Source: Bacteroidales bacterium (GTDB taxonomy: Bacteria > Bacteroidota > Bacteroidia > Bacteroidales > UBA12077). From it: a stretch of DNA of 64,000 nucleotides. The stretch spans positions 3,123-67,122 of the forward strand of contig WTBR01000050.1 in NCBI GenBank assembly GCA_013138975.1. The letters are read 5' to 3'. The notes beneath the pieces are model-generated. The model did not search any database, was not told the origin of the DNA, and was given only the letters and a program-made list of their open reading frames with translations. Every line of letters starts with the position of its first letter. The first letter of the stretch is position 1. Positions 32,781 to 43,863 of this stretch are shown here, one piece after another. The position numbers were made by a program, and so were the translations under genes.

Positions 32781-35072
32781 ATGAAGATTAATGTAAAAAT
32801 GCTTGCTTATATCCTATCTACTTCAATGTTAATTTTTATTACATCTGTTGGGTATATAACTTTAAAATCTAGAAACTTATCGCTAAAAGAAGCGCAAGAT
32901 CTTACGAACATAACAGCGCAAAAATATGCCAATGTTATTAAATCTGAATTAACTTCCGATTTCAATATCGTAAAAACTATTGCACAAGCTGGTCATGCAT
33001 ATTTATCTGTTCCTTGGGATCAGTGGAATAAAGTATTTTTAGAGCAACAACAAAATGTTATTAACGAAAACCCGCATTTTCTTGCTGTAGCAACAGCTTG
33101 GGAATTAAAATATATCGACCCAGAATGGAATAAACCTTTTGGTCGCTATACAAATGGTTGGGTTCGTGATGTTGATGGAACTATAAATCATTACGAAACT
33201 AAAGCCGGTCTCGATGGAGATGACATAAATGGTAATTATTATACAATGAAAACAACTGGTGTTTCTATGATAGTTGATCCTAAATTATGGTCTCCAACTG
33301 GTAGAATAGAAGATCAATATCTTAATACAAACTTATCGGTACCTATTAAGTTAGGTAATTCATTTATTGGTTTAGCTGGAGTTGATATCGATCTTAATAA
33401 ATTTCAAGATATTATTGTAAATATTAATCCTTTTGAAGAAAGTTTTTCTTTCCTGTTGTCTAATGATGGAACCATAGCGGCACATCCAAATTTAGAATTA
33501 ATGGGTAAATTAATTTCAGAAGTATTCCCTGAGTTTACAGAAAAATATAATATTGACGAAAAGGTTAAGAAGGGTGAAAACTTTTCATTCACACATAAAA
33601 AAGAAAATGGTGAAAAAGATTTTTACGTTTTTGCCCCAATTAATATTAAAGGAATTAATACACCATGGTCCTTAGCTATTTCAGTTCCTAATAAAGTTAT
33701 AACATCAGAATCAAACAGTATTTCATACAATGCATTAATTGTATGTTTTTTAGGATTGATATTATTAACAGTAGTAATTTGGCTTATTTCAAAAAATATT
33801 ACAGATCCTGTTATAAAAATTACTGAAATTCTTAAAAGCCTTGCTAAAGGTAAAATTGATGAGTCATTATTGATGGACGTAAAAACCAAAGACGAAATTG
33901 GTGAAATGGCTCTAGCACTAAATACATCAATTCAAGGTTTAAACAAAAAAACAGCATTTGCTAATCAAATAGGTTCTGGAAACATCGACTTTAAATTAGA
34001 TCTGGTAAGTGAGGACGATCAACTAGGTCAATCCTTAATAAATATGCGAAATAGCCTTTTAAAGGCAAATTCAGAAGAAGAAAAACGAAAAATTGAAGAT
34101 GAAAAACGCCGTTGGATAAATGAAGGTTTGGCTAAGTTCGCTGAGATACTTAGAAATAATAATAATGACTTAAATATCCTTGCTAATGAAATAATTAAAA
34201 ACCTGGTTTACTATATAGATGTTAATCAAGGAGGATTATTCATACTAAACGAACAAGAAGGATCTGTTATAAATTATGATTTGCTTGCTGCTTTTGCTTT
34301 CGATAGAAAAAAATTCATCAAAAAAACAATTGAACTAGGTGAAGGCTTAGTTGGATCTTGTGCAAAAGAAAAAAACACAATTCATTTAACTGAGGTTCCG
34401 GAAGATTATATTAATATAACATCGGGTTTAGGTGAGGCAAATCCTAATAGCTTATTAATAATTCCATTAATAATTAACGATGAAGTTCTTGGAGTTATTG
34501 AATTAGCCTCATTTAAAAAATTTAAAAAACACGAAATTGAATTTATTGAACAGGTAGCCGAAAGCATTGGAGCAACTTTAAAATCAGTCCGTATTAATTC
34601 AAAAACATCGTACTTACTTGAACAGTCGCAACAACAAGCAGAAGAAATGGCTGCGCAAGAAGAAGAAATGAGACAAAATTTGGAAGAGCTTCAGGCAACA
34701 CAGGAAGAATCTACCAAGAAAGGCAACGAATTTAGTAGCGTATTAAACAGTATCGATAAGTTTATATTAAAAGCTGAATTCGATTTAAATTTTAAATTAA
34801 TAAATGCGAATGATCTTTTCTTAAAACAATTCAAATATACAATGACCGAAGCTTTAGGAATGGAAGCAGAAAGTTTTATCGCTAAAAAAGATATTAGTAA
34901 ATTTCATGAAATTTCCAACACCGTTATGTCAGGAAACTCACATCAGGAAATTACATATTTAAAAAATAAAAATGGAATTGATTTAAGGCTACTTACGTCA
35001 TTTGCTCCTGTTTTTATTAATGAAAGTTTTAATAAAATTTTATTTCTTGCAGTAGATTTAAAAGATTATTAA
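32781..35072 (+). CDS. Cache-HAMP-GAF-coiled coil-PAS membrane receptor 1 (one repeat unit)
   Basis: 2 TM around a dCache domain, [13 protein letters not shown], GAF (QGGLF...GEGLVG...GVIELAS), [13 protein letters not shown] coil, PAS. Confidence 0.85.
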   Translation: [763 protein letters not shown]

Positions 35073-35129: not shown

Positions 35130-37712
35130 TTGAGTAAAATAAAAATATTGACCTTTATGAAAATGAAGTTAAATTTAAAAAGTAAAATGCAACTGTTTTT
35201 AATATCCTTATCGGTTGCTATATATGGTATTGCAATAGGTTATATTAGTATAAGTGCTAAAAAAACATCTTATACCGATTCAGTCGATTTAGTAATTTCA
35301 AATGCTGAAAAATATGCCATTAAAATACAGGCTGATCTGAATGATTACATGGCTACTGTGCGAACATTAGCTAATGCCTTTACAGTTTATAAGGATATGC
35401 CCAGAGAACAATGGGATCCATTATTCATAAAAATGTATAATAAAGTATATCTAGACAATCCCTCTTTTTATAAACTCTGGGATAGTTGGGAATTAAATAA
35501 AATTGATGAAGCATGGACAAATCCAACCGGACGTATAGCGAATGTGTTTTCTCGAATAAATGGCTCTGTTTCTCATAAACAAGACATAAGAAGTTTAGAT
35601 GGAGATCCCGCACTTTATGCAAAAATTAAAAATCAGTCAAAAGACATGGTTTTGCCAATTTATTTTAATGAATTTATTGACGAAAACGAATCATCCAGAC
35701 TAATGACCAGCCTAATTTCTCCTATTATTGTTGATAATGAATATCACGGAATGATTGGTGTTGATCTTATTCTGGAAAGATTTCAAAAGATGATAACAAA
35801 CATAAATCTCTCGCGGTTCACTAATAGTTTTGCCTTTCTTTTAACTGAAGAAGGTAAATTTGCAAGTTACCCAGACACAAAACTACTTAATCAAATTGCA
35901 ACATTTACATTAAAAACAGGTGAAAACTTCGAACTATTAAAGAACATCAAAAAAGGAGAAAACTTTCATATTATTACAGTTGATAGTACCAAAAAATCAC
36001 ATTTTATCGCATTTGCCCCCATTAATATTGGCAGAACAAATACTCCCTGGTATCTTGGCGTTTCTGTCCCAATAAGCTCAATAATGGCTCAAGCAGACAG
36101 TAACTTTATGATTTCATTGATTGTTGGTTTAATTGGCATTTTAATTTTAAGTTTTGTAATCTATATAATTACTAAAAACATTACAGATCCAATTCAAAAA
36201 ATTACAGAATATCTAAAAGAACTAGCACAAGGAAAAACCAATACAAAACTTGATTTAAATATAAATTCCGGAGATGAAATTCAAGAAATGACTTTGGCCT
36301 TAAAAACTTCCATTGAAGGACTGAATTTAAAAACAGAATTTGCTAATAATATTGAATCCGGAAATCTCGACTATGAGTTTAATTTGCTTAGCGATGATGA
36401 TAATTTAGGACTTGCTCTTGTTGAGATGAGAAATAGTCTTAAAAAAGCTAAAATTGATGAACAAGAAAGAAAATCTGACGATTATAAACGCAATTGGGCA
36501 ACAGAAGGACTAGCAAAATTTGCTGATATTCTTCGTCAGAATAATGATAATCTGGTAAAACTCTCTAATGAAATAATTAAAAATTTAGTTTATTACATGG
36601 AAGCAAGTCAAGGAGGATTATTTTTACTTAACGATGAAAATAAAAGCGACATTTTCCTTGATTTAATATCTGCCTTCGCCTATGATAGAAAAAAACATAT
36701 TGAAAAACGTATAGCATATGGAGATGGAATTGTTGGTTCTGTCGCTATTGAAAAAGAAACTACTTATATCGAAGATCTTCCAGAAGATTATATATCAATT
36801 GTTTCCGGATTAGGAGAGGCAAATCCAAGCGCATTACTTGTTGTTCCCCTTAAAATGGAAGACAAAGTCTTTGGAGTAATAGAAATTGCTTCATTCAAGA
36901 AATTTGAAAAATATCAAATTGAATTTGTTGAAAAAGTTGCTGAAAATATAGCATCTTCAATGTCCTCGGTTAAAATTAACATTCAAACAAATGAATTGTT
37001 AGATAAATTCCAACAGCAATCAGAAGAAAAGGCTGCTCAAGAAGAAGAATTGCGTCAGAATATGGAAGAAATGCAAACTATTCAAGAAGAATCAAATAGA
37101 AAGGCTCTCGAAACAAATAAACTCCTTGAACAATCGGAACAACAAGCAGAGAAGATGGCTGCCCAGGAAGAAGAGATGCGTCAGAATATGGAAGAAATGC
37201 TAGCCATACAAGAAGATTCAACAAAAAAGACCGAGGAAACAAATATACTTCTTGAAATATCACAACAACAAACCGAAGAGATGGCTGCTCAGGAAGAAGA
37301 AATGAGACAAAATCTAGAAGAACTTCAAGCTACTCAAGAAGAAGCAGATCTCAAAAATACAGAAATGGAAAATTTCTTAAACGCATTAGAACATTCAAGT
37401 TGTGTTGTTGAATATAACACAGAAGCCATTGTTACAAAAGTAAATGACAATTACCTTAACTCACTTAATCTAAAACGATCAGAAGTCTTAGGAGTACATC
37501 ATTCAGATAAGACAAAGTTTACAAAGAAACAAAAAGCTGAATATGATAAATTTTGGAATGATTTAAGAAAAGGAGAAAACAAAAAAGAAAAAACAAAATA
37601 TATAATTAATGGTAAAGAAAATATATTTTTAGAAGTATATACACCTATTATGAACGAAAATGGGCTTGTAAATAAAATACTGAAAATATCAAATAATGTA
37701 AATGACTTTTAG
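35130..37712 (+). CDS. Cache-HAMP-GAF-coiled coil-PAS receptor 2 (three repeat units; start possibly ATG 35157)
   Basis: Paralog of receptor 1 with 3 x 42-aa units. Confidence 0.85.
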   Translation: [860 protein letters not shown]

Positions 37713-37732
37713 AATTATAAAATACTGTTCTC

Positions 37733-40372
37733 ATGAAAATTAAACTTAAAATTCAACAAAAAATTCAACTTTTTATTATTTCTGCATCAATAATAATTTA
37801 TATTCTTGCTATTGGATATATTAGTCTTAATGCTCGCAAAATGGCCTTTAAAGATGCCACTGAAGTTACCAATAGACATGCACACGAAAGCGCAAACGAT
37901 ATCAAAGCCAAACTTGAGGCCGATTTAGCACTAGTTAGAACTCTTGCAGATGCTTTTCATACATACAAATACTTACCAACAGAACAGTGGCAAGATCTTT
38001 TTTTAAAAATGTATAACGAAGTATTTATATCAAATCCTCACATTTACAGCCTTTGGGATAGTTGGGAATTAAATGCTATTGATCCCGAATGGGATAAACC
38101 AACTGGTAGATATGTAATAATATTCTGGAGAGAAGGTGCTATTATAAAGCACAACGTTGAATACAGAAGCCTTGATGGCGATCCCGTTTTATATGGAGAA
38201 ATAAAAACCAGAACCATCCCTTCTATCTGGGAGCCTTATGAAGATGTATATGCTCAAGATAAAGCCGAAAAGTTTTTAATGACAAGTATGAATGCTCCTA
38301 TTATGGAAAATGGCAAATACATAGGAATAGTCGCTATTGATATTACACTTAATCGCTTTCAAGAACTTGTTGAGGAAATAAAACCGTTTGAGGGGAGCTA
38401 TGCATATCTAATTTCAAACGGAGGATTAATTGCGGGGCATCCCGAAAAAGAATTGTTGAATTCTAAAATTGAAGAACTTTTCCCCGATGATAATAATAAA
38501 TATGAAATTTCTAAAAATATTCTCGAAGGGAATCCAATTAGCTATATTAGCGAAGATGAAAATGGTGTGGAAAATTTCGTATCGTATGCACCAATTTTTG
38601 TAGGAGAAACAAATACTCCCTGGTCGATTGCAATTTCAGTTCCTTTAGATACAATTATGGCAAAAGCGAATCGAAATTTTCGAATTTCTTTTATTGTCGG
38701 AATTCTTGGAATTTTACTTATGGTTTTAGTTATAGCGATTATTAGTCGCAACATTACCAATCCAATTACTAAGATAACAAATCTGCTTAAACAACTTGCA
38801 AAAGGTCATTTAGATGATAAAATGAAAATCAATATTGAGACAGGTGACGAAATTGAAGAAATGACTGAAGCACTTAATTCCTCAATCAATGGACTAAACA
38901 AAAAGGTAGATTTTGCTAATCTTATTGGAAAAGGTGAATTAGACTCAAGTTTTGATTTATTAAGCGAAGAAGATGTTCTTGGTAAATCTTTAATTGAAAT
39001 GAGAACGAGCTTGATAAAAGCTGAAAAAGAAGAAGAAAAACGTAAAATTGAAGATGAAAAACGCAGATGGGGTAATGAGGGTTTAGCTAAATTTGCTGAC
39101 ATTCTACGTCAAAATAACGATAACCTTAAAAACCTTGCATCTGAAATTATTGTAAACCTTGTTAATTATTTAAAAGCGAATCAAGGTGGATTATTCATTT
39201 TAAATGATGAAGATAAAGAAAATGTACATTTAGATTTACTTTCTGCTTTTGCATATGACAGAAAGAAATTCGTGAAGAAAACAATCTTAATTGGAGAAGG
39301 TTTAATTGGAACTTGTGCCATTGAGAAAAAAACAGTTTTCATGACAAATGTTCCCCAAAATTATCTGAAAATAACTTCAGGTTTAGGTGGTGCAAATCCA
39401 AGTAGTTTATTAATTGTTCCTTTGAAACTGGAAGATGATGTTTTAGGTGTTATAGAAATTGCTTCTTTTAATGTATTTGAAAAACATGAAATAGAATTTG
39501 TAGAGAAACTTGCTGAAAGCACAGCAGCTACATTATCATCGGTGAGAATTAATTTAAGAACAACGGAACTCCTTGAAGGATCGCAGCAACAAGCCGAAGA
39601 AATGACTGCTCAAGAAGAAGAGATGCGTCAAAATTTAGAGGAATTACAAGCTACACAAGAGGAATCATCAAGAAAGACAGAAGAAACAAATAAGCTTCTT
39701 GAACAATCGCAACAACAAGCTGAAAATATGGCTGCGAAAGAAGAAATGTTGCGTCTGAATATGGTGCAAATGGTAGCCGTACAAGAAGAATCAAATCAAC
39801 AAGCAGAGAAGATGGCTGCCCAGGAAGAAGAGATGCGTCAGAATATGGAAGAAATGGTAGCCATACAAGAAGATTCAACAAAAAAAAGCGAGGAAACAAA
39901 TAAACTCCTTGAAATATCACAACAACAAACCGAAGAGATGGCAGCTCAAGAAGAAGAATTGCGTCAGAATATGGAAGAAATGCAAACCATACTAGAAGAA
40001 TCAAATAAAAAGACCATCGAAATGGAAGGTTTTGTTAAAGCTCTAAATTCATCAAGTTATGTTATTGAATATGACATTAACGGAATTATCCAAAAAATTA
40101 ACGATAACTATGTAGAACTTCTCGGAGTTAATAGAGAAGATGTAATTGGAACTCATCATTCAGAAAATCTTAAATTTACAAAACAACAAAAAGTTGAATG
40201 CGATAATTTATGGGAAAAGCTTAAGAACGAAGAGATTGTTAAAGAAACATCAACTATAACTGTAAATAAAAAAGAACTTGTTTTTTCCGAAACATATACA
40301 CCAATAAAAAATGCTCAAGAAAAAGTATATAAGGTTTTGAAGATTTCTAATAATATAACAGATTTTCAATAA
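37733..40372 (+). CDS. Cache-HAMP-GAF-coiled coil-PAS receptor 3 (about four repeat units)
   Basis: Paralog with four units, one junction shortened by 14 aa. Confidence 0.85.
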   Translation: [879 protein letters not shown]

Positions 40373-40404
40373 GTATAATAGAAATTTAACATGCAAAAAT
40401 AACT

Positions 40405-42444
40405 ATGAAACTTAAATTCAAAATACAACAAAAAATACAGTTCTTTATTATTTCTGCTTCAATAATAATATATACAGTAGCTATTGGATATATTAGTATA
40501 AACGACAGAAAAGAAGCATTTAAAAATGCTTCTCTTATAACAAATGAAATTGTCCAAAATTATGCTATAGATATTTCAAATCAATTAAACTCAGACATGA
40601 GCATCGTCAAAACTTTATCATACTCCTATCTTGTTTATGATAATATGCCAAAACCTCAGTGGAAAAAGATATTTAAAGATATGTATTTGGAGGTCTTTAA
40701 AAAAAATCCTCATTTTTATGCATTATGGGATAGTTGGGAATTAAGTGCAATCGATCCTAATTGGACAAAAGCTTTTGGAAGATATTCTATGGTTATTTCA
40801 AAAGATATCGATGGAAATGCTTTTCCCGATTCCACTTATAGAAGCATGGAAGTAGAATCGCAAATATATGATAAGATCATCAAACTGAGAAGAATTCCTT
40901 CTATTTGGGAACCATATCTCGACAATAATAAACTTAATGAAAATAAAAGAAGTCTGATGACTTCTTTAAATTCACCTATCATAAAAAATGGCGAATATAT
41001 TGGAATCGTTGCTATCGATATTACCTTAGATAATTTTCAACAAATAATTAAGCAAATAAGTCCCTTCGAAGGTAGTTTTGCTTATATGATTTCAAATGGT
41101 GGACTAATTGCTGGACATCCTGATCGTGAAATATTAAATCAAAAATTAGAAACTATATTTCCTGAAGATTTTAAAACATACAACATACAAGAAAAGATTA
41201 AAGCAGGAGAGTCTTTTAATTATATTAGTGAAAATAATGAAGGAGTAAAACTATATTATTCATATGCGCCTATAATTATTGAAGATACAAATACTCCTTG
41301 GTCAATAGCTATTTCTGTTCCAATAAATACAATAATGGCTAAAGCAAATCACAATTTTAGAATATCAGTAATTGTTGGAATTATTGGTATACTCCTTTTG
41401 GCACTAGTTATATTTATTATTGGACGTAATATAGCAAACCCTATAACTAAAATTACAAAGTTACTAAAACAGCTTTCTAAAGGTCATCTCGATGATAAAA
41501 TGCGAATACATATTAAGACAGGTGACGAAATTGAAGAAATGACCGAAGCCCTTAATGTCTCTATTGAGGGTTTAAATAAAAAAGTTGAGTTTGCAAATCA
41601 TATCGGTCAAGGAGAATTAAACCATACTTTCAATTTATTAAGTGAAGAAGATATTTTAGGGAAATCGTTAATTGAAATGAGAAACAGCCTCGTTAAAGCA
41701 GACGAAGAAGATGAAAAACGCAATATAGAAGATGAAAAACGGAGATGGACGAATGAAGGTGTAGCTAAGTTTGCAGATATTTTACGTCAGAATAATAATG
41801 ATCTTGAAATTCTTGCTACAGAAATTATTACAAACCTTATAAATTATTTGGAAGCAAACCAAGGTGGTGTTTTTATTTTAGATGATAATAATAAAGAAGA
41901 TATCCATTTTAATCTTCTTTCTGCATATGCATATGATAGAAGGAAATTTCTGGAAAAACATATTGAACTTGGAGAAGGATTGGTTGGTAATTGTGCTATT
42001 GAAAAGAAAACAATATTTCTGATCGACATTCCTCAAGATTACGTGGAAATTACTTCAGGACTTGGATCTGCTAATCCAAATTGTTTATTAATTGTACCAT
42101 TAAAGCTTGATGAGAATGTTCTCGGAGTACTTGAAATAGCTTCTTTTAAAGTTCTTCAAGATTTTGAAATTGAGTTTGTCGAAAAATTAGCTGAAAACAT
42201 TGCCTCCACTTTATCATCAGTAAAAATAAATATTAAAACTTCTGAATTATTAGAACGTTCGCAGCAACAAACAGAAGAAATGGCAGCTCAGGAAGAAGAA
42301 ATGCGCCAAAACATGGAGGAATTGCAAGCTACTCAGGAAGAAATGCACAGAAAAGAAGATCGATTGAAGGGAGTTATAGAAGAAATGAAAGAACATGAAG
42401 ATAAACTAAAGAAAACAATTGATAAGTATAAGAGTAAAATGTGA
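40405..42444 (+). CDS. Cache-HAMP-GAF-coiled coil receptor 4 (one unit, no PAS)
   Basis: Paralog ending in coiled coil. Confidence 0.85.
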   Translation: [679 protein letters not shown]

Positions 42445-42471: not shown

Positions 42472-43863
42472 ATGAAGAATAATATTTTTTTTACAATTGA
42501 TAAAGAGAAATGTGTTAACTGTCATCAATGCATTGCAGTTTGCTCAACAAAATTCGCAAATAATGGAATTAATGAAATAATTGAAGTTGTTAATGATTTA
42601 TGCATAGGTTGTGGAGAATGCGTTAAAGCCTGTTCTCACGATGCAAGAATTCCAATTGATGATTTTGATTCAGCAATGACTGCTTTACAACAAAAAGAAA
42701 AGGTAATTGCAATTATTGCTCCAGCTGTTGCATCAAATTTTCCCAATCAATACTTAAATTTAAATGGATGGCTTAAATCTCTTGGCATTGAAGCCATTTT
42801 TGATGTAAGCTTTGGTGCTGAACTAACTGTAAAATCATATTTGGAGCATATTCAGAAAAATAAACCAAAGCTTGTTATTGCACAACCTTGTCCTGCAATT
42901 GTTCGTTATATTCAAATTTACAAGCCAGAATTAATACCTTATTTAGCACCAGCAGATAGTCCAATGGTGCATACAATGAAAATGATTAAACGCTTTTATT
43001 CAAAATATAAAGATCATAAATTATTAGTTGTGTCTCCTTGTGTTGCAAAAAGAGTTGAGTTTGAAGAAACAGGAATAGGTGATTTTAATGTAACCATGTC
43101 CAAGATTCAAAACCATTTAAATGATAATAAAATCAGCTTAGAAGATTTTCAGAAAGTTGAATTTGACAATGACCCTGCTGAGCGAGCTGTTTTGTTTTCT
43201 AGTCCTGGAGGATTATTGGAAACTGCAGAACGAAAAGTTCCGGGGATAAGATATCAAAGTAGAAAGATTGAAGGACCTCATACTATTTATAAATATCTTG
43301 AAAAATTAGAAAAACAATTAGAAAAAGGAATGACTCCTTTGCTTATTGATTGTTTAAACTGCGAATTAGGGTGTAATGGCGGAACCGGCACCAATTGCTA
43401 CGATAAATCCCCTGATGAACTTGAATATTATGTAAATCAAAGAAGTATCGAGGCACAAAACAAACAAAAAACAACAGAAAACAACAAAATAACTACAGTA
43501 CAATACGAACAGCTAGTTGACAAATATTGGGAAGAAGGTTTATATGATAGAACATACGAAGATTTATCTTCAAATACATCAATCATTAAAATCCCCACAG
43601 AAGATGAGCTTCAAAACATCTACACTTTAATGGATAAACACAAAAAAGAAGATCATAAGAATTGCTCTAGTTGTGGATACGATTCTTGCGAAATTATGGC
43701 AGTAGCTATTTTTAACAATCTTAATAAAGCTGAAAATTGCCACCATTATTTACATGAAGAATTAAATACAAAGACTGTTGAGGCAAATAATCAAAAAGAT
43801 GAAATTATAAAAGATTCCGAAGCTATTTTGAGTTTAATTTATAAAATTCGACAATCAATCTAG
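42472..43863 (+). CDS. [FeFe]-hydrogenase-like Fe-S protein (sensory group C/D-like), no output domain
   Basis: CVNCHQCIAVC and CIGCGECVKAC; AQPCPA, SPCVAKRVE, DCLNCELGCNGG; C-terminal CSSCGYDSC...NC. Confidence 0.88.
   Translation: MKNNIFFTIDKEKCVNCHQCIAVCSTKFANNGINEIIEVVNDLCIGCGECVKACSHDARIPIDDFDSAMTALQQKEKVIAIIAPAVASNFPNQYLNLNGWLKSLGIEAIFDVSFGAELTVKSYLEHIQKNKPKLVIAQPCPAIVRYIQIYKPELIPYLAPADSPMVHTMKMIKRFYSKYKDHKLLVVSPCVAKRVEFEETGIGDFNVTMSKIQNHLNDNKISLEDFQKVEFDNDPAERAVLFSSPGGLLETAERKVPGIRYQSRKIEGPHTIYKYLEKLEKQLEKGMTPLLIDCLNCELGCNGGTGTNCYDKSPDELEYYVNQRSIEAQNKQKTTENNKITTVQYEQLVDKYWEEGLYDRTYEDLSSNTSIIKIPTEDELQNIYTLMDKHKKEDHKNCSSCGYDSCEIMAVAIFNNLNKAENCHHYLHEELNTKTVEANNQKDEIIKDSEAILSLIYKIRQSI

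Follow-up and report, generated by a model that had tools for sequence, protein, structure and literature searches.

Tandem arrays of a 42-residue heptad motif in Bacteroidales sensor genes and their probable exchange between paralogs by out-of-register gene conversion

Introduction

The phasing of linker length in whole heptads is a central idea in bacterial receptor signalling, for which most of the evidence comes from engineered kinases. The cytoplasmic domains of chemoreceptors (methyl-accepting chemotaxis proteins, MCPs) reportedly fall into heptad length classes and carry methylation helices (Alexander and Zhulin 2007), and the sites methylated in Escherichia coli follow the consensus EExxA(S/T). 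In sensor histidine kinases with LOV/PAS-DHp linkers, such as YF1, a continuous helical linker runs from the sensor to the next module, and both natural and engineered linker lengths obey a seven-residue rule that preserves angular register (PMC6798134). The signalling helix (S-helix) is defined by an ERT signature in its central heptad (Anantharaman, Balaji and Aravind 2006, PMC1592074). Here we analyse a window of 64,000 nucleotides (contig WTBR01000050.1, positions 3,123 to 67,122 of the forward strand, assembly GCA_013138975.1; coordinates below are those of the window unless another contig is named) from an uncultured Bacteroidales bacterium, known from a marine-sediment metagenome assembly of 6.8 Mb in 221 contigs. 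Four tandem paralogous sensor genes, R1 to R4, neighbour one another on the plus strand of the window and encode a 42-residue unit of six heptads (126 nucleotides, nt), which is present once in R1 and R4 and as a tandem array in R2 and R3. Our preferred reading, to which we assign a probability of about 0.78, is that the array grew in R3 and was then copied into R2 by gene conversion, with only whole-heptad changes surviving. Heptad-phased linkers are an established principle, which the motif, its in-register tandem arrays and the proposed conversion out of register extend.

Results

A pattern search for the unit located one copy in R1, three in R2, about 3.67 in R3 (four copies, one of them truncated) and one in R4, the same unit and counts that a first-pass annotation of this DNA had given (1, 3, about 4 and 1). 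R2 (35130-37712) encodes a protein of 860 residues from a TTG start, or of 851 residues from an alternative ATG at 35157, with the architecture dCache_1, transmembrane segment (TM), HAMP, GAF, three units and PAS. Its array (36996-37373) is 126 residues or 18 heptads long and is made of three complete 126-nt units, u1 at 36996-37121, u2 at 37122-37247 and u3 at 37248-37373. R3 (37733-40372, 879 residues) has the order dCache_1-TM-HAMP-GAF-array-PAS, and its array of 154 residues (39569-40030) divides into u1 (39569-39694), u2-delta (39695-39796), u3 (39797-39904) and u4 (39905-40030), which contribute 42+34+36+42 residues, or 22 heptads in all. Here u2-delta is degenerate and cut to 34 residues, while u3, with 36 residues, lacks the first six, and the array can be written A, B-delta, A', B'. 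Tandem Repeats Finder independently detected a period of 126 in R2 and periods of 84 and 210 in R3. The open reading frame (ORF) list, Pfam and the pattern search together define the flanking paralog R1 (32781-35072, 763 residues) as dCache_1-TM-HAMP-GAF-unit-PAS with its unit at 34614-34739, and R4 (40405-42444, 679 residues) is dCache_1-HAMP-GAF followed by one unit (42247-42372) and a heptad tail without a PAS domain. The PAS domain of R1 to R3 is a weak Pfam match.

The internal junction of the R3 array at 39796/39797 had been claimed to remove exactly 14 residues and to keep the heptad register, and we find it to lack exactly 42 nt that R2 retains at 37098-37139, with the register continuous across it. 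Alternatively, an 84-nt duplication of the core of the unit would produce the same junction. Immediately upstream, unit B (u2-delta) now reads ENMAAKEEMLRLNMVQMVAV, with 8-9 of the positions that are invariant in the family changed. Most of its acidic and invariant residues are gone, and it has the appearance of a decaying or fast-evolving copy. An antisense ORF of 117 residues on the minus strand (39651-40004), rich in L, F, P and S, was considered and rejected as a spurious, low-complexity mirror of the repeats.

R2 and R3 share a near-identical block, which lies at 37140-37291 in R2 and at 39797-39948 in R3, where its left end is the 14-residue junction. Six mismatches in this block, and an identity far above the surroundings, had been reported for it; our alignment gives 146 matches in 152 positions (three synonymous and three non-synonymous differences), compared with 63% identity between R2 and R3 overall in a codon alignment. 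In sliding windows, the check that the first-pass annotation had proposed, the array was the only R2-R3 region above 79%, the value reached by the best 90-nt window outside it. Within the arrays, R2 u2 and R3 u3 are 99% identical in their core regions, whereas other unit pairs are 63-89% identical. Codons for identical residues are themselves identical in 24 of 25 cases within the block, whereas this fraction averages 0.60 and reaches at most 0.79 for other unit pairs, so conservation of the protein does not account for the identity of the block. By a binomial model, 146 or more matches in 152 positions have a probability of 8e-9 at a background identity of 80% and of 1.6e-3 at 89%.

Comparison with relatives gives the events a polarity. 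Twelve genomes of the same genus have a syntenic cluster, with gene lengths of about 764, 769, 769 and 676 residues, and all 46 of their motif-bearing genes contain one unit. A sister contig (L060) from an independent Joint Genome Institute (JGI) metagenome is also syntenic, shares 88-90% DNA identity with the window and encodes a one-unit R2 orthologue of 770 residues, a three-unit R3 orthologue of 850 residues (P0001) and a one-unit R4 orthologue. R2 is 84 residues longer than its sister orthologue, and the R3 array spans 154 residues as against 126 in the sister and 42 in other orthologues; the comparison of unit numbers that had been called for thus returned whole-heptad differences. In a maximum-likelihood tree of the first 600 residues, R2 and R3 each pair with the corresponding sister orthologue with 100/100 support, and both pairs are nested in clades whose remaining members all have one unit. 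A contig from a related population (run X2) skips 252 nt in R2, between 37028 and 37281. Querying 5.8 billion proteins with the array returned no expanded R2 or R3 orthologue beyond P0001. The junction ETNK/LLE is common to R3 and its sister orthologue; a metagenome scan for the DNA of this junction gave 47 loci, none with the motif and all of them chance matches. Two further contigs of a related population (run X4) were flagged as unreliable: one skips 42 nt (14 residues) in the R2 array at 37229-37272, and the other, of low depth, joins R2 u3 to R3 u4 (37298-39966).

With the sister contig as a reference, R2 resolves into segments of different affinity. The head of R2 u1 is closest to the head of the sister R2 unit (93%) and the tail of u3 to the tail of that unit (96%), whereas the middle of u1 is closest to the middle of R3 u4 (94%), u2 to R3 u3 (98-100%) and the head of u3 to the head of R3 u4 (94%). 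The head of u1 together with the middle and tail of u3 therefore appears to be the original R2 unit, 93-96% identical to its sister orthologue and split by an insert of about 252 nt. By this segment comparison the putative R3-derived tract, which has sharp edges, covers about 37050-37301, beginning midway through u1 and ending in the head of u3; 200 of 210 positions match R3 segments, and identity falls to 69% immediately to its right. The insert is colinear with the middle and tail of B, then A', then the head of B' in an R3 array as it would have been before the 42-nt deletion. Upstream of the R3 junction the two genes are not homologous in sequence, and a conversion tract is expected to end there. 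The arrangement has the hallmarks of non-allelic gene conversion, namely a tract of sharply higher identity, synonymous sites included, within diverged paralogs, and an outgroup in which the recipient R2 is without the tract. The earlier proposal that units are shuffled between these paralogs is hence supported as non-allelic recombination, and from the alignments we infer that R3 was the donor and R2 the recipient.

These observations suggest the following history, whose exact order is provisional. The ancestral state would be one unit per gene. In-register duplications of 126 and 252 bp would have built the R3 array, beginning in the common ancestor with the sister species, and a 252-bp duplication would have yielded the four-unit form A, B, A', B'. 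Gene conversion out of register would then have carried a stretch of about 252 bp, starting midway through B and ending in the head of B', into the single unit of R2 after the split from the sister species, raising R2 to three units. Afterwards R3 would have lost 42 bp and its unit B would have decayed. Throughout, only whole-heptad changes would survive, keeping the coiled-coil register, and hence the angular phase between GAF and PAS, and leaving the motif exposed on the same face. Helix length would grow by about 12 nm in R2 (84 extra residues) and by about 17 nm in R3 (112 extra residues).

The unit itself has the features of a long helix. Every heptad row of every array has the form a-E-E-d-x-x-x (for example TEETNKL), and in R1 to R4 the register is unbroken from the last GAF helix (..SVRINLRTTEL) through the units to the start of PAS. 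Array hydrophobicity gives a single Fourier peak at 3.5 residues (0.75, compared with at most 0.34 elsewhere), and the R2 and R3 arrays contain no proline and carry net charges of -24 and -26. About half of the a and d core positions are polar (a = L, A, E, L/M, Q, T; d = S, M, M, L, S, T). From the single sequence of R2 residues 590-770, AlphaFold2 predicted one helix over residues 2-180 with a mean predicted local distance difference test score (pLDDT) of 93, and a full-length AlphaFold model of R3, built on a 73-sequence alignment, has helices at 584-643 and 692-774. The coiled-coil check suggested with the first description of the repeat thus came out positive for periodicity, register and predicted helicity. 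In the 73-member family alignment, invariant columns are packed more densely in the unit than anywhere else along the protein (L L... Q. Q. E E... Q. E E. R Q N. E E L. A T Q E). We conclude that the unit is, by prediction, an acidic, Gln/Glu-rich coiled-coil helix joining the last GAF helix to the N-terminal PAS helix, and that the array may form a dimeric, perhaps parallel, coiled coil. The unit is covered by no Pfam or NCBIfam model: scans of the whole proteins against both collections, and of the arrays alone against Pfam with E up to 10, returned nothing over it but chance coiled-coil matches; a PDB profile search with the unit gave only insignificant matches to designed coiled coils, and literature searches found no description of the 42-residue motif.

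The heptad rule extends beyond this locus. A profile of the unit gave 2839 matches at E <=0.001 among 1.84 billion representative proteins, and spacings were analysed in the best profile matches together with homologues from other searches. We found 41 tandem arrays in 39 proteins; of their 67 tandem spacings, 64 are divisible by seven, with values of 14, 28, 35, 42, 49, 56, 63 and 70 residues. In a first set the first spacing was a multiple of seven in 35 of 37 proteins (binomial P ~1e-27 against uniform phase), and in the final set every spacing was so in 37 of 39. Other motif spacings cluster at 150-175 residues, which corresponds to one motif plus one PAS domain. A metagenome representative, P0231, has spacings of 54 and 65 residues that sum to 119, or 17 heptads; its internal motif is shifted by five residues and the phase is then restored. 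Close to half of the arrays elsewhere (20 of 41) lie at a free C-terminus that leaves no room for a downstream domain, often with perfect motifs, so the motif is not simply a spacer and appears to have a role of its own. The spacing rule fits the known heptad dependence of sensor-kinase coiled-coil linkers (PMC6798134).

What the extra units do can be approached in two ways. According to the first, selection has acted on the GAF-to-PAS distance, with unit number determining either how far the PAS domain reaches or how strong the signalling gain is. This would make the array an adaptive device for length tuning, and the first-pass annotation had indeed held that the repeat sets stalk length in heptads and thereby tunes this distance. 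The part about heptads stands, as all length differences are whole heptads; the tuning is conjectural. Selection on length would suit the strictly kept register, the intact reading frames and the occurrence of expanded arrays in two adjacent genes, and the activity of engineered sensor kinases does vary with linker length in a heptad pattern (PMC6798134). However, it sits poorly with a GAF-to-PAS distance that is invariant in 46 of 46 genes of the 12 related genomes, with an expansion found among the 5.8 billion proteins in two organisms only (this genome and the sister contig), with the loss of family-invariant residues from the added units, with the decay of one R3 unit and with the many arrays elsewhere that no domain follows. 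We consider adaptive tuning doubtful.

The second possibility is that the unit is a site, either methyl-accepting and acted upon by CheR and CheB or binding some other partner, and that expansion raises the number of sites per receptor. In the assigned register, the residues turned outward from the coiled-coil core do not vary within the family and form a pattern starting QEE; every heptad has an EE pair at positions b and c, and the hexapeptide EELQAT, itself invariant in the family, fits EExxA(S/T). Only one unit per gene keeps EELQAT in the expanded proteins (R2 u3, R3 u1 and u1 of P0001), however, while the extra units have EEM(Q/V/L)(T/A)I or EELQAV in its place, with T replaced by I or V. 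C-terminal arrays elsewhere do contain perfect motifs (for example P0122, P0126 and P0266), but neither P0122 nor P0266, nor any of R1 to R4, has CheR or CheB neighbours, and no significant hidden Markov model match to chemoreceptors was obtained.

The genomic setting of some other family members would fit such sites. The genome studied here encodes 11 motif proteins, of which all but R2 and R3 have the motif once, and all three of its strong CheR genes lie within about 5 kb of motif proteins. On contig C18 (36-6709), an operon reads CheR1-CheR2-CheB, a TM-GAF protein without the motif, a TM-GAF-motif-PAS-PAS-PP2C protein, and SiaB-like and SiaC-like genes. Its CheR1-CheR2-CheB-(TM-GAF) core recurs in 8 of 8 loci fetched from seven other families of the order and one genome of the same genus, and the full operon through PP2C and SiaB/SiaC in five of these (four of the seven other families and the same-genus genome). 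A receptor-type motif protein also lies between two CheR genes in two families. Sixteen genomes from different families of the order were compared: all 7 that have the receptor family also carry the CheR pair, and none of the 9 lacking the family does. At phylum level, only 3 of 301 genomes matched a profile of the motif, too few for a co-occurrence test. The link between the motif and the CheR/CheB genes is thus one of genomic association only, and multiplication of sites strikes us as an unlikely purpose of the expansion. Equally tentative is the broader idea that the unit is the methyl-accepting or adaptation module of Bacteroidota receptors that work independently of CheA and CheW, in which CheR1, CheR2 and CheB would modify the EE pairs and the output would be a switch of SiaA-like PP2C, SiaB and SiaC. 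If it is correct, heptad-phased arrays would give receptors different numbers of adaptation sites and hence a different dynamic range. The true MCPs of the genome are encoded by genes separate from the motif receptors. Contig C171 (113735-127249) carries a complete che operon (CheY, CheA, CheW, two MCPs, CheR, a small histidine kinase, CheD and CheB), and after CheB and a 118-residue ORF there follows, on the same strand, a 758-residue TM-GAF-motif-multi-PAS protein without an output domain.

Logan contigs (k=31) from X1, probably the source run, provided a further check of the arrays. They match the window exactly across four of the five junctions between units (37121/37122, 37247/37248, 39694/39695 and 39796/39797), and the fifth, 39904/39905, is spanned by a separate contig (39827-39937, depth 16.2) whose mismatch-free status was not confirmed. 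Contig depths over the arrays are roughly 8-16 (8-15 at the four exact junctions), compared with 14-15 in the flanks. That the units or the shared block arose from mis-threading of motif DNA of paralogs or co-occurring strains is very improbable: although the assembly is a short-read metagenome assembly, k=31 contigs break at exact repeats of 60, 44 and 35 nt that are common to R2 and R3 (in R2 at 37140-37199, 37035-37078 and 37251-37285), and X1, which holds 97% of sampled words of 36500-40400, has an unexplained zero contig depth over 40037-40400, the unit-to-unit junctions cannot come from one-unit genes and are found in exact contigs near flank depth, both block variants occur as separate X1 contigs, alternative pairings at the repeats would by our reasoning produce a deletion and a circle instead of a linear chromosome, and the independent JGI contig has a three-unit R3 orthologue with the same ETNK/LLE junction.

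Downstream of the receptor cluster, 42472-43863 encodes a 463-residue [FeFe]-hydrogenase-like protein with Fer4 domains, and the same gene follows the cluster in at least three of the syntenic clusters examined, that of the sister contig among them. At 6.8 Mb the genome exceeds 24 others of the genus (2.3-4.9 Mb), with a stated contamination of 1%; it is either truly large or contains a mixture of strains that escaped detection.

Discussion

Growth of the array in R3, followed by its conversion into R2, accounts for the segmental affinities of R2, the codon-level identity of the shared block and the one-unit state of the relatives, but several observations weigh against it. Unit B of R3 matches the R2 segment thought to be copied from it at only 79% identity, which obliges us to assume rapid decay of unit B or more than one exchange. 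Evidence for the arrays comes from a single short-read metagenome-assembled genome and from k=31 contigs of the same sample, and the linkage across the exact R2/R3 repeats is taken from the assembly. As for the helix, the full-length R3 model leaves residues 645-694 unstructured (pLDDT <50); the model is uninformative in this segment, because one-unit homologues are gapped there and leave the alignment empty. A stable homodimeric coiled coil is not certain either, since only about half of the a and d positions are hydrophobic and the chains are strongly acidic.

The locus amounts to a recent natural experiment, in which one receptor differs between close relatives in having 1, 3 or 3.67 units, and an array has, on our reading, been transferred between paralogs. 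It also belongs to a wider pattern, a seven-residue spacing rule that holds across a family whose motif has no Pfam or NCBIfam model, and for which we found no solved structure and no literature. The family is a large group of Bacteroidota sensors that lack an enzymatic output domain, and in R1 to R4 Pfam detects no kinase, MCP signalling, GGDEF/EAL or DNA-binding domain. In these output-less sensors the motif is more conserved than any domain, and its function could explain how such "input-only" receptors of the Bacteroidota signal; any signalling effect of the extra units would be part of that question.

How, then, does this array compare with the helical elements already described? With the LOV/PAS-DHp linkers it has in common the continuous helix and the seven-residue rule, but where those linkers are variable spacers the present motif is acidic and strongly conserved, it expands by whole units of 28 to 70 residues, and it often ends the protein, with no kinase after it. 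The resemblance to MCPs lies in length measured in whole heptads, EE/QE pairs seven residues apart, the EExxA(S/T) context and the genomic association with CheR and CheB. R1 to R4 nevertheless lack an MCPsignal domain (PF00015, no match at E up to 0.1) and a hairpin tip, and whereas insertions and deletions in MCPs are symmetric in an antiparallel hairpin, the units described here are in tandem within a single helix.

Like the S-helix, the unit is a helix of about 40 residues that connects two signalling domains (GAF and PAS in R1 to R3) and has polar core residues (PMC1592074), whereas R4 and many relatives have no second domain. We rejected membership in the S-helix family, as no unit contains ERT and the motif, of about 42 residues, has a different invariant pattern (QEE...) and can occur in tandem. 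Poly-HAMP arrays (PMC13446029) offer another parallel, in that helical signalling modules are concatenated along a receptor stalk; each HAMP, however, is a four-helix bundle of about 50 residues with its connector, while the present array is predicted to be one uninterrupted helix. Finally, the exchange between R2 and R3 resembles other non-allelic gene conversions of tandem paralogs in its short near-identical tract, which includes synonymous sites and is bounded where homology ends. It differs from the usual case in that the repeat number of the recipient would have changed from one to three, through out-of-register alignment of the tract across tandem repeats.

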